A stretch of DNA of 64,000 nucleotides. It comes from Alphaproteobacteria bacterium (GTDB lineage Bacteria > Pseudomonadota > Alphaproteobacteria > MPNO01). Below, piece by piece: positions 3,149 to 57,116 of this stretch; the stretch's first letter is position 1, and every line of letters begins with the position of its first letter. The translations under genes and the position numbers were made by a program. The notes beneath the pieces were generated by a model, which did not search any database, was not told the DNA's origin, and saw only the letters and a list, made by a program, of their open reading frames with translations. The stretch is from positions 2,944,001-3,008,000 of the forward strand of contig OZ219866.1 in the NCBI GenBank assembly GCA_964291675.2, in the 5' to 3' direction.

Positions 3149-3912
3149 CGGGCTTCGGTGCGCCCGTCCGCGGCCGCCTCGCGCGCGTCCGCGACGAGTT
3201 GGCGCATCGTCTCCAGATCGCGCCCGCCGCGGATCACCTTGCCGCCGATGACGAATGACGGGGTGCCGTTGAGGGAGAGCGCGTCGGCGATGGCGTAGTT
3301 GCGGTTGATGATGCGGGCGATGTCGGGCTTTCCGAGATCGCGTTCCAGCCGCCGCCGGTCGAGCCCCGCCTGCTCGGCGAGGGAGAGCACCTTGCCCCTG
3401 TCCAGCGCGCCGCGCGACTCCATCATGAGGTCGTGGAAGCGCAGGTATTTCGCACCGCCCTGGTTGCGCGAGGCCAGCGCCGCGCGGGCGGCGAAGACCG
3501 ATTCGGGACCGAGAATCGGCCATTCGATGTAGACCCGACGGATCTTGCCGTCGGACGCGATGAGCTCGTCGACGATCGGATGGACCCGCCGGCACACGCC
3601 GCAGCGGTAGTCGAAGAACTCGACCACGGTCACGTCGCCGTCGACATTGCCGCCCACCGGGGTCGCCGGGCGCTCGAACAGGTCCCGCCGGTACTTCTCG
3701 ATGGCGACCGCGGCGGCGCTCTCCTTCGCCGCCTCGCGCTTGGCCGCGAGCGCCTCCATCGCGCGCTCGATCACCTCCGGATGGCGCAGCAGGTAGGACT
3801 CGACGACGCTTTCAATGGCCTGGCGCTGCTCGGCCGTCATCTCGGCCGCGCGGGCGGGGAGTGCGCCCGCCACGGCGATCGCACAGACCGCCGCGAGAAT
3901 CCATGAGCGCAT
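3145..3912 (-). CDS. DsbA-family thiol-disulfide oxidoreductase
   Basis: Signal peptide, EFFDYRCGVC (CxxC), GTPSF. Confidence 0.9.
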   Translation of the reverse strand: MRSWILAAVCAIAVAGALPARAAEMTAEQRQAIESVVESYLLRHPEVIERAMEALAAKREAAKESAAAVAIEKYRRDLFERPATPVGGNVDGDVTVVEFFDYRCGVCRRVHPIVDELIASDGKIRRVYIEWPILGPESVFAARAALASRNQGGAKYLRFHDLMMESRGALDRGKVLSLAEQAGLDRRRLERDLGKPDIARIINRNYAIADALSLNGTPSFVIGGKVIRGGRDLETMRQLVADAREAAADGRTEAR

Positions 3913-43594: not shown

Positions 43595-43935
43595 GATCAC
43601 CCCCGGACTCGTTCCGGGGGCCGGGCATGACGAGGGTGGGTGTGGGTGTTGGCGCTCCCCCCATGTCATGGCCGGACTTGTTCCGGCCACCCATGCGGCA
43701 CCCTCGCGCGCATGGCGGCCCGCCGGGAGAGGCGGCGGCGCCAGTGGGTGCCCGGATCAAGTCCGGGCATGACGGGAGGGGGTGTGGGTGTTGGCGCTTC
43801 CCCACCCCGTCATGGCCGGACTTGATCCGGCCATCCACGCGGCCTCTCCCCCGCATGACGGTCCGACGGGACGGGTGGCGGCGTCCATGGATGCCCGGAA
43901 CACTCCCGGACTCGTTCCGGGGGCCGGGCGTGACG
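43595..43935. repeat. Cluster of CGTC-type REP palindromes
   Basis: gtcatggccggacttg(a/t)tccggcca and tgcccggatcaagtccgggcatgacg in alternating orientation. Confidence 0.88.
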
Positions 43936-51641: not shown

Positions 51642-51848
51642 CGCCTGTCCTCGGATAGGGGTGCCGGGGGCAGACTACATCAGAAGGGCGGGCGTTGGGA
51701 TCAGAAGGGCGGGCGTTGGGCAGGCGGGGCGGTTGTCGCTTCGGGCGGGGCGGGAATGCGCTCTCCCCACCGTCCCCACCCGCGCCGGCCTTGAACCGAG
51801 CGTCCGGTTTTCTTACGTTTCTTTTATCGATTGGAAAAGGTTACGACC

Positions 51849-52061
51849 ATGTCAAGGACAGCAACCCTGTCGTCCAAGTTCCAGATCTCGATCCCGAAGG
51901 CGGTGCGAACGGCTCGGCAATGGGAAGCCGGGCAGGTCTTCGCCTTCATCCCCAAGGGAACCGGCGTCCTCCTCGTTCCGGTCCCGGATCGCGACGCGCT
52001 CGCCGGCATCGCCGATGGCGCCGCGACGGACGGCTACCGCGATCGCTCGGATCGGCGCTGA
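51849..52061 (+). CDS. AbrB/MazE-type antitoxin
   Basis: TLSSKFQISIPKAVR motif; stop overlaps the toxin start. Confidence 0.9.
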   Translation: MSRTATLSSKFQISIPKAVRTARQWEAGQVFAFIPKGTGVLLVPVPDRDALAGIADGAATDGYRDRSDRR

Positions 52062-52435
52062 TGCGCCTCGTCGACAGCTCGGCCTGGATCGAGTGGCTGA
52101 TCGGCTCGCCCGTGGGAGAGGCCGTTGCGGAGCGCCTTCCGGAACAGCCTGCCTGGCTGGTTCCGACCATCGTCCAGCTCGAGCTCGCGAAGTGGCTCAC
52201 CCGGGAGCGTGGCGAGGACGAGGCCGATCGGGCGATCGCCTTCACCCAGGTCTGCAGCGTCGCCCCCCTGGACACGGAGATCGCTCTCGCCGCCGCCGAG
52301 GCCTGCCGTACGCACGGCCTCGCAACCGCGGACGCCATCGTCTTCGCCACCGCCCGTGCGCATGAGGCCGACCTGCTGACCTGCGATCGCCACTTCGAAG
52401 GCCTCCCCGGCACGATCCTCATCCCCAAGACCTGA
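52061..52435 (+). CDS. vapC: VapC/PIN toxin
   Basis: LVDSSAWIE, PTIVQLE, TADAIV, LLTCDRHF. Confidence 0.92.
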   Translation: MRLVDSSAWIEWLIGSPVGEAVAERLPEQPAWLVPTIVQLELAKWLTRERGEDEADRAIAFTQVCSVAPLDTEIALAAAEACRTHGLATADAIVFATARAHEADLLTCDRHFEGLPGTILIPKT

Positions 52436-52520
52436 GCCGGCGCCATTTTCCCCTCCGGGCGGCGCGTCGCTTCGGGCGGGGCGGAGAACGCCGGCGAGGC
52501 CCGCCCCGCCATCCCCGCCC

Positions 52521-52733
52521 CGTCATGGCCGGCCCCCGGATCGAGTCCGGGGGCGATCCGGCCATCCATGCCGCCTCGCGGCCCGCGAGGCGGTGGGTCG
52601 GGAGGGGCGGCGGCGCCAGTGGGTGCCCGGATCAGCCCCCTTCGTCATGGCCGGACTTGATCCGGCCATCCACGCGGCCTCTCCGCCCGCACGACGGTCC
52701 GACGAGAGGGGCGGCGGCGCCAGTGGGTGCCCG
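52521..52733. repeat. REP cluster whose last REP is interrupted by the IS
   Basis: cgtcatggccgg palindromes; ccagtgggtgcccg breaks off at 52733 and resumes as cggatcaagtccgggcatgac at 54093. Confidence 0.85.
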
Positions 52734-52812
52734 ATGGAGTGGACGCCCCCTCCGACGGCATCTGTGTGCCAAAGTGGCGGTGTCATCAACCCACTTGGAG
52801 GAGGGAGCATCC

Positions 52813-53844
52813 ATGGCCGAGGTTAGCATGATCGGGATCGATCTTTCGAAGCGGAGTTTTCAGCTGCACGGGATGTGCGCGGACGGCTCGGTGGGTTTCC
52901 GCCGGACGCTGAGCCGCGGCAGGCTGCTCGCCTTTGTGGCGCGTCAGCCGCGCTGCGTGGTGGCGATGGAGGCGTGCGGGGGTGCGCATCACTGGGGTCG
53001 CGAGATCCTCGATCTGGGCCATGAGGTGCGGCTGGTGCCGCCGGTCTATGTGAAGCCCTTCGTGAAGCGCCAGAAGAACGATGCGGCGGATGCGGCGGCG
53101 ATCTGCGAGGCGGCGTCGCGGCCGACCATGAGCCTGGTTGCGGTGAAGACGGCCGAGCAGCAGAGCCGCGGCATGCTGTTCCGGGTGCGCGATCTCCTGG
53201 TGCGCCAGCGCACCCAGGCGCTCGACGCGCTGCGCGGCCATCTGGCGGAGTTCGGGCTGGTGGCGCCGAAGGGTCCGGCGAGTGTCGGCAAGCTCGCGGT
53301 GGCGCTGGAGGCTGCGCGGGCCGGTCTGCCGGACCGGGTGGGCGAGCTCGCCGGGGTGCTGCTGGAGCAGATCGCCGGGCTGGACGAACAGGTCGCCGAG
53401 CTCGACAAGGAGCTGCGCGCCGAGGCGCGGCGGGATGCGGATGCGCGCCGGCTGATGACCATACCGGGGGTCGGGCCGGTCACCGCGATGGCGATCCAGG
53501 CCTTCGCGCCGCCGCTCGACGGGTTCCGCCGCGGGCGCGACTTCTCGGCCTGGCTCGGGCTGGTGCCGCGCCAGCACACGACGGCCGGCAAGCCGCGGCT
53601 GGGCAGGATATCGAAGATGGGCCAGCGCGATCTCAGGCGGCTCTTGGTGCTCGGCGCCATGTCGGTGGTCCGCAGCGCCGGGCGCCACGACACGGTGCGC
53701 GACCCGTGGCTGGCCGGGATGCTGGCCACCAGGAAGCCGAAGAAGCTGATCGCCGTGGCGCTGGCCAACCGCACCGCGCGCATCGCCTGGGCGATGACCA
53801 CGAGACAGCAGAGCTACCGGGCGCCCGCGCCGAACACCGCCTGA
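52813..53844 (+). CDS. IS110-family recombinase/transposase (IS1111 group)
   Basis: GIDLSK, MEACG, KNDAADA (DEDD); IPGVGP, AWLGLVP, ALANR. Confidence 0.95.
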   Translation: MAEVSMIGIDLSKRSFQLHGMCADGSVGFRRTLSRGRLLAFVARQPRCVVAMEACGGAHHWGREILDLGHEVRLVPPVYVKPFVKRQKNDAADAAAICEAASRPTMSLVAVKTAEQQSRGMLFRVRDLLVRQRTQALDALRGHLAEFGLVAPKGPASVGKLAVALEAARAGLPDRVGELAGVLLEQIAGLDEQVAELDKELRAEARRDADARRLMTIPGVGPVTAMAIQAFAPPLDGFRRGRDFSAWLGLVPRQHTTAGKPRLGRISKMGQRDLRRLLVLGAMSVVRSAGRHDTVRDPWLAGMLATRKPKKLIAVALANRTARIAWAMTTRQQSYRAPAPNTA

Positions 53845-53849
53845 GCGCG

Positions 53850-54060
53850 GCGGATGCGGGCCGCCGTCGGCAGTGCGGGCGAGGTCTGAGGACGGGTAAG
53901 GACAAACGGTCGATGAGACGGGATCGGGAAAACCAGTTTGATCCGGCGCGCCGAAGAGCACGCGTGCCCGTATGCCATACAGGCCCGCGGCGCCGCATAG
54001 GCCGCAAGCAGAGGCCGCATAGACGACAGCACCTGACCGCACTGTCCGAACCGTTCGAAA
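53850..54060 (+). ncRNA. Candidate seek/bridge RNA of the IS1111-group element
   Basis: Contains ttgatccgg and gtgcccg matching the two halves of the target REP, and catagacga matching the circle junction; ends approximate. Confidence 0.7.
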
Positions 54061-54092
54061 AAAAACCTTGCACCGCCGGGGGCGTCCATAGA

Positions 54093-54575
54093 CGGATCAA
54101 GTCCGGGCATGACGAGGGAGGGCCGGGGGCGACGGCGGCATGCGACGACGCGTCGCGCGTGTCGCGATCCGTGTCCCGATCCGGCGGATGGGCCGGAAAT
54201 TCGCGCGTACCGAGGCTTTGCGCCCGGTCCAGCTCATCCAAACCGGACAGCAGTGGCCTCGATCCGGGCATCCACTGGCGCCGCCGCTCCTCCCGACGGG
54301 GCGTTGTACCGGTGGCGCCAGTGGTTGCGCGGATCAAGTCCGCGCATGGGTGGCCGGATCAAGTCCGGCCATGACGGGGTGGGGGTGGCGGTGGAGGAGT
54401 ACGGGAGCCGGGGGCGGACCGCCCCACCCGTGGGTGCCCGGAACGAGGCCGGGGTGACAACGGAGGGGCAGGGACGGCAAGTGCGGGCGTGCGGCGATCC
54501 GTGTCCCGATCCGGCGGATGCGCCGATATCCCGCCCGGATCAAGGCTTTGCGCCCGGTCCAGCTCATATAAACCG
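54093..54575. repeat. REP/REPIN cluster with two copies of a roughly 75-bp unit
   Basis: gcgatccgtgtcccgatccggcggatg...aggctttgcgcccggtccagctcat at about 54164-54237 and 54494-54567; reverse REPIN at about 54255-54376. Confidence 0.85.
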
Positions 54576-54639
54576 TCATGGTCTCGGCGGTGCTGAGCCA
54601 CCCCGTGGCATGAAACTCGGGGCGTTCGGCTGAGGGTTT

Positions 54640-54860
54640 GCCGATCGTCGCGCGGGTCTGCCGTGGCAGGATGGGAATGGTGGAGGCGGCGACGCGTGAG
54701 CGTTCCGTTTATCGGTGATGTGGTTCCCGAGATATAAACTGCTTCCGGCGGTCGGCTCCGCACCCCGTACTGTGCCCGGCCCGCGGCCGTGGACGCGCGG
54801 CAAATCGAACCGCACCCGCTCGACGGGTGCGTGTCCTTCCGACCGCTGTCCCCGCCTCCA
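54640..54860 (+). ncRNA. Candidate bridge RNA of the IS110-group element
   Basis: atataaac (54732-54739) equals the left target flank; cggcaaa (54798-54804) equals the right-end donor; both lie in hand-predicted internal loops; ends approximate. Confidence 0.65.
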
Positions 54861-54922
54861 CCGTGGCGATGCCACGGCGCGATCCTACGCCGCCGTGGCG
54901 AGAGCGCAACGAGGAGGACAGC

Positions 54923-56174
54923 GATGAAGACGGAAGGCTTGCACGTCGTGCGGCCGCGCGCGGCGGGTCTGGACGTGCACAAGATGGAGATCACCGCGAC
55001 GGTTCGCCTGTGCGAGGGCGAGGGCGAGCCGGTGGTGGAGACGCGCTGCTTCAGCTCGCTTCCGAGCGGTCTGGCGGAGATGGTCGCCTGGCTGACCGGT
55101 CGCCGCGTCGAGGCCGCTGTCATGGAAGGGACCGGGATCTACTGGCAGGCGCCCTTCGCGGCGGTGGAGGCGGCGGGGATCGAAGCGATCCTGGTGCACG
55201 CGCGTCAGGTCAAGCAGTTGAAGGGGCGCAAGACCGATGTCGCCGACAGCGTGTGGCTGGCCTGCGTGTGCCAGTTCGGGCTCTGCACGCCTTCCCATGT
55301 TCCCCCCGAGCCGTTCCGGGAGCTGCGCTCGCTGAGCCGCCAGCGGCGTACCCTGGTCAGGCAGCGCTCGACCGTGCGCAACCGGGTGCAGAAGATCGTC
55401 GACCGCGCCGGCCTGCGCATCGGCGGCATCCTCTCCGACGTCTTCGGCGTCAACGGCCGCAAGATCCTCGACGGGCTGGCGCAAGCCACGCCGCGCGCGG
55501 TCATCCTCGCCTCGCTCACCGGCCACGTCGCCAACAAGCTGGAGGGGCTCGGCGAGGCGCTCTCCCTGAGCCTGGGCGACAACGACCGCTTCATGCTCGG
55601 CGATCTGCTGGACGAGCATGACGCGCTCGAGGCGCGCATCGCGTCCTACGGCGAGAAGATCGACCGGCAGATGACGCCGTGGCAGGAACAGCTCCGCCTG
55701 CTGACCACCATCCCCGGCATCGACCGCATCGCCGCCTCGACCATCCTGATCGAGATCGGCCCGGATATCGAGGCGTTCGCCTCCAAGCAGCACTTCGCCG
55801 CCTGGGCCGGGCTCTGCCCCGGCAACAACGAAAGCGGCGGAAAGCGCCGCAACGCGCGCACCCGAAGGGGCTCCAAGACGCTGCGCGCCAGCCTCGTCGA
55901 ATGTGCCCACGGCGCGGCCCGAACCAAGGGGTGCCAGTTCGAGGCCCACCACCGCGCGCTCGCCGCCCGGCGCGGATACAAGCGCGCCATCGTGGCCGGC
56001 GCACACAAGATGCTGCGCATCGTTTATGTCGTGCTCAAGACCGGCAGGCCCTACTACGACCGCACCGCCGACTACGACGCGCTGATGGTCAAGCGCAACG
56101 CCCCGCGCTGGATCCGAATGCTCCGCCGCTACGGCTACATCCAACCCCGGCGCGCCGAACCCAAGGCCACCTGA
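54923..56174 (+). CDS. IS110-family recombinase/transposase
   Basis: GLDVHK, MEGTG, KTDVADS (DEDD); TIPGI, AWAGLCPGNNESGG; RBS gaggagga. Confidence 0.95.
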
Positions 56175-56525
56175 CCGGCCCGCATAACGCCGGACCGCCG
56201 CGCGGGACCGCTTCGGGCCACATCGGGGAAGTCCACCGCTCGTCTCCGCCGCCCCCTTCCGGCGATCTCAGCCAACTCCCTCCCGGCGTTGGATGGGGCC
56301 CTCGCGCGCCCCCACCGAAACTGTTTCACGGCAAACCGGACAGCAGTGGACTCGATCCGGGCATCCATGCCGCCTCGCGGCCCGCGAGGCGGTGGGTCGG
56401 GAGCGCTGCCGGCGACCCCACGGCGGTTTCGTCGTCGCCGCGCGACGGCGTCTTATTAAACTTTTGCCCTGTAATCCTAATAGCGCCAAGCCTAGCTACG
56501 TTTCGTTTAATTGGGGCGCCCGTCC

Positions 56526-56770
56526 ATGTACCGGGGCGAGACCGGCCGATACGAAGCGACCGTCGTGGGCGGCGAGACGGTGCGGGCCTTCGTTCCGGCC
56601 GCCCTGCCCCCGGCGCCCCCGCTCGACTATCCTTCCCGGCGGCGTCGGCGGCAATGGAGATCCTCGAAAACTCGGGCATCGCGCGCGAGTTGACGGGCAA
56701 GAAGCGCAACCGCCGGTTCGGCTATGCCCGCTATGTCGCCATCCTCGGCGAGGGAACCGAACCGCTGTGA
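56526..56770 (+). pseudogene. Fic family protein remnant (catalytic core deleted)
   Basis: N-terminus GETVRAFVPAALPP joined out of frame to C-terminus ELTGKKRNRRFGYARYVAILGEGTE; no HPFxDGNGR. Confidence 0.8.
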
Positions 56771-56792
56771 GCGGCCGGGCGCCTTTCGCCCC

Positions 56793-57116
56793 TCAGCACC
56801 CCAGCACCCGCACATGCCCTTCCGCGCCGTAGTCGAGCAGGAGGCGGTCGCGCGTGACCAGCGTATAGCCGAACGCCCGCGCGGTGGCGGCGAGGATGCG
56901 ATCCGCCGGGTCGGCGGGCGGCGAGCCGGGCAGGGCGCAGGAGGCGATCGGCACCGAGGGCGGCATCTCGGCCAGCGCCACCCCGGGCAGCGCGCAGAAG
57001 CGCTCGAACCATGCCCCGGGCGCGAGCGACAGGGCGATCCGGCCCTGTCGCTCCAGCATGGCGAGCTCCCACGCGGTCACCGGGGAGACGGCGAGCCCCG
57101 CGCCCGGCCCCGTCAT
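56793..57116 (-). pseudogene. 5'-truncated VapC/PIN toxin
   Basis: VSPVTAWEL, DPADRIL, LVTRD present; N-terminal LLDT strand and antitoxin missing. Confidence 0.78.

Follow-up and report, generated by a model that had tools for sequence, protein, structure and literature searches.

An insertion sequence lies in a 64,000-nt stretch of an alphaproteobacterial genome (GenBank assembly GCA_964291675.2, contig OZ219866.1, positions 2,944,001 to 3,008,000; hereafter the window), where it splits a repetitive extragenic palindromic (REP) sequence of the host. Judged from its sequence, the element belongs to the IS1111 group of the IS110 family, and its 3′ non-coding region encodes a seekRNA/bridge RNA whose structure is borne out by covariation among relatives. 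The loop positions that in this element match the two halves of the split REP and the right end of the element have homologs in a set of 45 elements at 41 distinct sites, in which they track the flanks and right ends. Taking this evidence together with the points that weigh against it, we put the probability that the element is an RNA-guided IS1111 member with a REP target at about 0.88. The copy in the window further carries an 18-nt deletion in the RNA gene that removes one strand of a conserved helix.

The element and its REP target

The element measures 1359 bp between two CG cores and represents the short form, two other copies in the genome being 1376 bp long. With slashes marking the junctions, the left boundary reads GGGTGCC-CG/ATGGAGTGG, with the first element base at 52734, and the right boundary CCATAGA/CG-GATCAAGTCC, with the last element base at 54092; the element itself opens with ATGGAGTGGACGCCCCC and closes with GGGGGCGTCCATAGA, a CG flanks it on each side, and the halves of the REP lie outside both CGs (Table 1). 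Downstream of the transposase gene stand 248 nt of non-coding sequence (53845–54092), against 79 nt upstream. The subterminal inverted repeats TGGACGCCCCC and GGGGGCGTCCA are 11 bp long and inset by 6 nt from the left and by 4 nt from the right end, and repeats of 7–17 bp are reported for the IS1111 group (PMC11208160).

The transposase matches the Pfam domains PF01548 (2.3e-12) and PF02371 (4.5e-22) as well as the NCBIfam model NF033542, “IS110 family RNA-guided transposase” (318 bits, against a cut-off of 140), and is 39.5% identical to an IS4321-family transposase over residues 1–337 (98% of the length) and 38.8% identical to an IS5075-family transposase (98% of the length). Candidates for the DEDD residues, assigned by motif only, are D10, E53, D90 and D93. 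A transposase of 330–350 aa and a C-terminal GL-P----S/T-G motif, which occasionally ends in TA, are given as marks of the IS1111 group (PMC11187229); here GLVPRQHTTA at residues 249–258 is the TA variant of that motif, and every defining feature of the group that is checkable in the sequence was found. The domain and model matches and the identity to the IS4321-family protein bear out the first-pass annotation, which had called an IS1111-type RNA-guided recombinase from the letters of the window and its open reading frames.

The genome holds four copies of the element, all of which have an open transposase reading frame. Each copy interrupts the REP at one and the same CG, and all are oriented alike. 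Their sites read G(G/A)TGCC-CG-GATCAAGTCCGGGCATGACG, one copy carrying an A instead of G as the outermost base of the left half-site. The flanks of the four copies are alike for 100–200 nt, which is the extent of the repeat unit, and are unrelated farther out, and the copies therefore represent four separate insertions. An uninterrupted REP, GGGTGCCCGGATCAAGTCC, is present at 43746–43764 with one CG, so that insertion adds no bases other than the shared CG core. The CG core and the split REP had been proposed from this same intact example, with insertion of other copies at unrelated sites named as an outcome that would speak against the idea, and both the core and the position hold for all four copies. 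Further free targets had likewise been expected, and the 13-mer GTGCCCGGATCAA, which is the span of both target guides, occurs in the window twice exactly and seven times with one mismatch, against 0.15 expected, and 67 times exactly and uninterrupted in the whole genome. For the host genome the element is an ordinary one, a REP-restricted insertion sequence that avoids genes.

The target REP is itself the right arm of an inverted REP pair of about 100 nt (GTCATGGCCGGACTTG... to ...CCGGATCAAGTCCGGGCATGAC), seen in the window at 43667–43775 and 52640–52733, and the left flanks of all four copies are 76–96% alike across this inverted REP-pair unit.

Table 1. Features of the insertion sequence, its RNA gene and its target in window coordinates
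Feature	Position	Strand	Basis or remark
Left half of the split REP target (GTGCC) with core CG (52732–52733)	52727–52733	+	identical to the B guide at 53964–53970
Insertion sequence, short form	52734–54092	+	four copies compared
Left end, 79 nt, starting ATGGAG	52734–52812	+	ATGG start in most relatives
Left subterminal inverted repeat TGGACGCCCCC	52740–52750	+	reverse complement of 54078–54088
Transposase gene, 343 aa and stop	52813–53844	+	Pfam, NCBIfam, motif positions
Putative seekRNA/bridge-RNA gene, short form, 139 nt (157 nt in intact copies)	53904–54042	+	covariance model R1
P0, 5′ strand GGTCG, pairing with TGACC at 54034–54038 and closing the whole RNA	53908–53912	+	helix 1; GC to AU in 9 relatives
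P1, 5′ strand GGGATCGGG, partner deleted in the window copy	53920–53928	+	helix 2; 6 of 8 pairs with compensatory change
T guide (right-target guide) TTGATCCGG	53938–53946	+	reverse complement of C-CG-GATCAA
P2 hairpin between the two target guides	53947–53963	+	helix 4
B guide (left-target guide) GTGCCCG	53964–53970	+	identical to GTGCC-CG
Site of the 18-nt deletion (CGATTTGGACCCGATCCG in long copies)	53968–53970	+	copy comparison; placement ambiguous by 2-nt CG
Candidate right-donor guide TGCCAT	53973–53978	+	opposite left-end ATGGAG
Donor-loop hairpin: P4a, GGCC 53982–53985 with GGCC 54013–54016; P4b, GCGGC 53987–53991 with GCCGC 54001–54005	53982–54016	+	helices 5 and 6
Left-donor guide CATAGACG	54018–54025	+	identical to right end CATAGA plus CG
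−35-like TTGCAC, then 17 nt to GA+CG+AT (GACGAT) across the circle junction	54068–54073	+	inferred function
Right subterminal inverted repeat GGGGGCGTCCA (54078–54088) with terminal TAGA	54078–54092	+	sequence inspection
Core CG and right half of the split REP (GATCAAGTCC)	54093–54104	+	sequence, copy comparison

The RNA gene and its guides

The RNA alignment comprised 40 sequences, namely the long form of the element and 39 relatives; one relative (L094) was left out for an insertion between its RNA gene and its right end. RNAalifold recovered five helices (P0, P1, P2, P4a and P4b), and after trimming of the alignment 98.7% of 1118 cells are in standard pairs, with 13 of the 28 pairs changed on both sides. 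None of 500 shuffles attained any of the measures, and sliding the partner strands by 1–3 columns left 20–45% pairing. In the target arm, P1 closes a loop that holds the T guide, the P2 hairpin and the B guide, and in the donor arm a conserved NNCCAT segment stands 5′ of the P4a/P4b hairpin and the donor guide 3′ of it. The three matched strings TTGATCCGG, GTGCCCG and CATAGACG are all located in internal loops of this model. The cgcg stem that had been described between two target guides corresponds to the P2 hairpin; in the family register it has one C-A mismatch in the window copy (53949/53960), and the CGCG/CGCG register gives four pairs.

A search of the genome with the covariance model R1, which was derived from this alignment, returned exactly four matches, which are the four copies, and no orphan RNA genes. 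The same model finds the 3′ region of IS4321 in an end-to-end alignment (24.4 bits, against 6.6 bits for the next match), and there AAAACGGAA and ATAGATTC at the loop positions match the flank in the Tn21-type inverted repeat and the right end of IS4321. Just 5′ of P0 and outside the RNA model, the nearly invariant GGTAAGGGCAAAC (window 53890–53903; columns 14–27 of alignment A1) may belong to the RNA or be a processing or binding site.

The strings singled out in the first-pass annotation, including TTGCAC and a CATAGACG extended by one A to 54026, all occur where it had placed them. In 5000 dinucleotide shuffles of the 223-nt non-coding stretch, scored by the length of core-anchored matches, the 9-mer was attained once, the 7-mer 249 times and the 8-mer 14 times, and all three were never attained jointly. 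Guide function was then assessed on relatives from the same family of genomes and from 80 public-genome loci at 58–75% protein identity; 57 of these loci had both ends recognisable, and 23 were dropped with one end unmatched by the patterns or with too short a contig. Removal of duplicates and addition of the long form gave the 45 elements at 41 distinct sites, in which exact core-anchored matches of at least 7 nt within fixed non-coding windows were counted for cognate and for same-core non-cognate pairs. The T guide matched the right flank in 18 of 45 cognate and 4 of 1034 non-cognate pairs, the B guide the left flank in 33 of 45 and 4 of 998, and the donor guide the right end in 38 of 45 and 0 of 346; by distinct target, 23 of 33 left and 15 of 38 right sequences were matched by at least 7 nt.

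Individual relatives illustrate how the loops change with the sites. An element of genome G016 (72% identical; at least 11 loci, all identical, were inspected) is inserted at AAGTC-CG-GGCATGAC, and its RNA has AAGUCCG at the B position and ACACACG at the donor position, where the window element has GTGCCCG and CATAGACG. In L086 the T guide and the right flank are both the same as in the window element, and in L084, where CUUGAGCCGG stands beside CG-GCTCAAGG, the T guide differs by the same two bases as the flank. Elements with a TG core (L117, L092 and L098) carry CA or TG at the core positions of their guides. The idea that the RNA guides both target and donor was among those set down from the window alone, and the way in which homologous positions follow the flanks, together with the joint shuffle result, upholds it.

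On these comparisons the left-donor guide is strongly supported, and the right-donor guide is a weakly supported candidate. The CCAT of the right-donor segment is conserved in every relative and complements the opening bases of the left end, but the two variable positions upstream track left-end positions 5–6 only partly, and the segment does not pair with the core. In the window element, TGCCAT would form four Watson-Crick pairs, one wobble and one mismatch with the left end. An exact-match search that included the core yielded only scattered matches of 3–5 nt, and a core-spanning right-donor guide was dropped on that account in favour of the conserved NNCCAT segment, which is partly supported.

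The 18-nt deletion, proposed mechanism and alternatives

The four genome copies come in two lengths. The copy in the window and the one at C2:1391795 lack the 18 nt CGATTTGGACCCGATCCG just past the B guide, and they also share three substitutions and a 1-nt indel relative to the 1376-bp copies. What is missing is the 3′ strand of P1, a strand found in each of the 40 aligned sequences, and the same deletion was found in none of the other fetched relatives. The short form scores 93.2 bits with R1, a loss of 55 bits against the 148.7 and 147.1 bits of the long copies. The long form folds unaided into P0 and P1 (−60.1 kcal/mol, z −2.36), which the short form does not (z −0.56); the summed pair probability is 7.99 for P1 in the long form and 5.83 for pairing of the P1 5′ strand with the T guide in the short form, and the mean unpaired probability of the T guide drops from 0.37 to 0.08. 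The T guide happens to resemble the lost 3′ strand of P1, and the orphaned 5′ strand is predicted to pair with it instead. Base pairing of the matches within the RNA had been foreseen as a result that would count against guiding, and this concern is justified in part: the T guide is predicted to be paired in the short copy, but this is a consequence of the deletion, and the two full-length copies do not show it. On these models, an impaired short-form RNA is the outcome we lean towards.

The short copies keep an open transposase gene and intact ends, and since the short form is found at two unrelated loci it moved after the deletion had arisen. The simplest account is that the two intact copies provide RNA in trans, on which the short copies probably rely; trans function has been demonstrated experimentally for ISEc11. 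For ISEc11 and ISXne4, the non-coding region was needed in cis or in trans, a junction promoter was described, and activity of the non-coding region in trans was found for ISEc11 (PMC11187229). Intact and P1-deleted RNA alleles on near-identical elements provide a natural test of the need for a closing stem and of action in trans.

We infer that the 3′ non-coding region is transcribed and processed into an RNA of about 157 nt, which guides the DEDD transposase and carries two arms on the basal stem P0. Within the target arm, the T guide UUGAUCCGG on the 5′ side of the loop would pair with the top strand of C-CG-GATCAA and the B guide GUGCCCG on the 3′ side with the bottom strand of GTGCC-CG, the two being separated by P2. 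In the donor arm, CAUAGACG would match the right end and the core, and a short CCAU-containing segment would lie opposite the bases with which the left end begins. At the CG core, recombination would then insert the element in one orientation into one REP arm outside genes, a target of which the 67 exact copies are unoccupied. Excision would join the ends in a circle and place the conserved TTGCAC 17 nt upstream of GACGAT, creating a putative promoter at the junction for both transposase and RNA. In 30 of 40 relatives a TTG is likewise found 25 nt short of the right end, a scan of the linear element for promoters and terminators found no sigma-70-like promoter and no terminator, and junction promoters are known in IS1111/IS110 elements (PMC11187229; ISPpu10, PMC12288879). 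The window copy and the copy at C2:1391795, their own RNA being probably poor or inactive, would be moved by the RNA of the two intact copies.

Several results weigh against RNA guidance of this element or against parts of the mechanism. An Rfam scan of 52000–57000 with E up to 10 gave only chance-level matches to unrelated families and none in the 3′ region of the element. A single-sequence fold of the non-coding region of the window copy was no better than shuffles (z −0.23 and −1.35), which we ascribe to the deleted 3′ strand of P1 and the resulting pairing of the T guide. The relatives are kin to one another, so that the guide counts are not independent trials, and at the 7-nt threshold the T guide is without an exact match in 27 of the 45 elements. 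The closest multi-copy relative has two mismatches beside the core, and in the right-donor segment a clade of nine relatives (one row of which is a duplicate element) is mismatched at left-end position 5. A search of sequencing runs gave one strong match (share 0.65) and many with small shares, the two RNA runs having 0.08 and 0.07; no joint of the right end to the left end occurs among the joints listed in the contigs of four runs, the uncovered parts being uninformative. The short form is known from the assembly alone, and in run X1 one contig has the long form, with the 18 nt after 53968, and no listed contig runs across the short junction. Contig skips from 526xx–527xx to 54093 were considered as excision at this locus and rejected, as their sides of 21–26 letters have other letters between them and look like other REP copies.

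Among alternatives to RNA guidance, the genome is full of REP-like sequence and the 7-mer alone comes up readily in shuffles, so that the matches could be imagined as chance, or as a captured REP fragment without guiding function; with the three matches never reproduced jointly, and with each standing at a fixed position of a conserved loop and covarying across relatives, this is scarcely credible. It is also very improbable that recognition of the REP falls chiefly to the protein or works through the hairpin structure of the REP, with the RNA matches secondary: relatives that are 58–75% identical in protein occupy 41 sites, many of them not REP-like, and their guide positions follow the site, although the target is one arm of an inverted REP pair and a preprint of 2026 on ISPpu10 proposes a structural layer besides base pairing (10.64898/2026.03.19.712850).

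The remaining alternatives accept the guide RNA and concern what the copies can do. All four might be inactive relics of an element that is immobile in this genome, as might be suspected from the presence of only four copies beside 67 free exact targets, from the missing circle junction among the listed contig joints, and from a right-donor segment that departs from the family consensus; against this, the transposase frame is open in every copy, the copies differ by a handful of changes, and the ends and guides are intact, which makes the relic view unlikely. Rather less unlikely, though still doubtful, is a harmless deletion, with the short RNA of the window copy guiding alone and the copy fully autonomous. 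All guides, P0, P2 and the donor arm are intact in the short form, which is found at two loci, and for ISEc11 an RNA of 82 nt, shorter than the full 154-nt form, sufficed (PMC11187229). The conservation of P1 in all 40 aligned sequences, with compensatory change in 6 of 8 pairs, the lost 55 bits, the predicted sequestration of the T guide and the restriction of the deletion to this genome among the fetched relatives argue against a harmless deletion.

Known systems, rearranged relatives and neighbouring loci

REP-targeting IS110/IS1111 elements have been in print since 2006 (PMC1525189), and the REP target and seekRNA of ISPa11 were characterised in 2024 (PMC11187229); with REP-targeting elements and characterised guide RNAs already published (ISPa11, ISPpu9 and ISPpu10), what is new here is the P1-deletion allele. 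ISPa11, an IS1111-family element of Pseudomonas aeruginosa, likewise occupies a fixed position in a host REP, and its 3′ non-coding seekRNA, which co-purifies with the transposase, has its top-strand match 5′ of its bottom-strand match (PMC11187229); by its description it is set apart by host, REP and guides. IS4321 and IS5075, also of the IS1111 family, are similar in transposase, and the RNA region of IS4321 fits R1 with guides in the same places, but they target the inverted repeats of Tn21-type transposons rather than a REP, the RNA is distant, and core and ends differ. ISEc11 and ISXne4 (IS1111 family) resemble the present family in natural retargeting through changed loops on a conserved stem, and differ in having linear, non-repeat targets; the available part of that source describes no natural RNA-gene variant with a deletion (PMC11187229). 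ISPpu9 and ISPpu10 of Pseudomonas putida (IS110 family) share the multi-copy habit, insertion in REPs and modular circles, with a junction promoter in ISPpu10, but belong to other subgroups, and the small RNA Ssr9 downstream of ISPpu9 is reported to be dispensable for transposition (PMC12288879).

The bridge RNA of IS621 (IS110 group) has two loops, each with a left guide for the bottom strand and a right guide for the top strand, and a dinucleotide core; unlike the RNA described here, it lies in the left end, its guide order is reversed, the core is CT, and IS621 is without long subterminal repeats (PMC11208158). The right-donor guide of our element is short by comparison and leaves the core uncovered. 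A target-binding loop of the IS621 type (P1, T, P2, B) is present in the family and in the two long copies, and the window copy is without the 3′ strand of P1. The T and B matches overlap in the target at C-CG, and in the RNA the T guide, which complements the top strand, stands 5′ to the B guide, which complements the bottom strand. This order agrees with the published IS1111 seekRNA layout, in which the top-strand match likewise precedes the bottom-strand match and overlaps with it in the target (PMC11187229), so that the RNA follows the IS621 plan with reversed guide order. The ortholog family, with CG or TG cores, offers some 40 natural guide/target pairs on one conserved scaffold and hence a table of loop position against DNA position for the IS1111 layout, which is less well described than that of IS621; both this table and the deletion allele are useful rather than surprising.

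Some relatives carry rearranged RNA genes. L014 (G014:C1, minus strand; 69% amino acid identity, inserted in a REP) has three extra identical units of 142 nt between the element and its right flank, each beginning directly behind the B-guide DNA (GGAAGTC-CG) and closing with the right end and CG, so that the edge is the exact left target with its core. L091 has a tandem array that begins at position 3275, reaches the locus end and counts at least 13 units of 131 nt (161 nt in two of them), each consisting of the donor half of the RNA gene and the right end. The units start after GCTCCG-CG; of the last 7 bases in the element's own left target, 5 agree with this sequence. Tandem units that keep the left-donor match have been described in IS110 loci, IS1111 being unmentioned in the available part of that work (10.64898/2026.08.14.744561). 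A second copy's left end is joined after ...GAGGC-CG in L058 and L075 and after GGGGGCG in the right inverted repeat in L087, L118 has a 10-nt duplication, and L072 has a 30-nt duplication at the right end; these five rearrangements all lie at CG sites inside the RNA gene or right end.

In the window copy, the 18-nt deletion is bounded by the two CG positions at which the units of the L014 and L091 arrays also start, with a 2-nt CG microhomology, and the shared edges may be a coincidence or a scar of the recombinase. An account that we think improbable would treat the deletion and both arrays as scars of self-directed recombination, in which the B-guide DNA, being equivalent to the left flank and core, serves the element's own recombinase as a half-target, and in which the short copies are RNA-dead, transposase-proficient and spreading on RNA supplied in trans. 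Deletion by recombination between two internal CGs was set aside except as a low-probability option, as the second site is unlike the donor and target half-sites and 18 bp is too short intramolecularly.

Other relatives have RNA genes as targets or hosts of insertions. In L042 the B guide GCAAACG and the T guide TTGACCG match the flanks GGGCAAA-CG-GTCAATCGAGACGGGATCGGG..., which are the conserved 5′ part of another relative's RNA gene, and the element appears from these matches to target the guide-RNA gene of a related insertion sequence. A 1-nt loss in the RNA gene of L042 was considered as self-immunity and rejected, since its sisters L041, L043 and L044, which have other targets, share the loss. 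In L043 and L097 the RNA gene is interrupted, at different positions, by a sequence beginning ATCCTATGAGG, which may be another mobile element entering these RNA genes.

A more distant subfamily (L018, L022–L024, L027, L028 and L032; 42–44% amino acid identity, with a fragment in the genome studied here at L034) always has GGAGAA as its left flank and an ATG 6–9 nt into the right flank, like the spacer between a ribosome-binding site and a start codon. Its T-guide region differs between genomes, and at a fixed place four of six loci match their own right flank, by 9, 9, 8 and 7 nt. Non-cognate pairs reach mostly 5 nt and once 6 nt; the sisters L024 and L028 share a right flank and match each other, and two loci are imperfect.

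A second IS110-family element occupies the window at about 54576–56332, with a transposase gene at 54921–56174 (417 aa) and a long upstream non-coding region; eight copies are present genome-wide, all of them lying within a repeat of about 176 nt. This repeat occurs in some 30 copies, some of them arranged tandemly with a spacing of 330 nt. At 51831–52435, immediately upstream of the REP cluster, a PIN-domain protein (3.6e-19) is preceded by a small MazE/AbrB-like protein that scores 20.6 bits, below the Pfam cut-off of 24.7 bits, and the two likely form a toxin-antitoxin pair.

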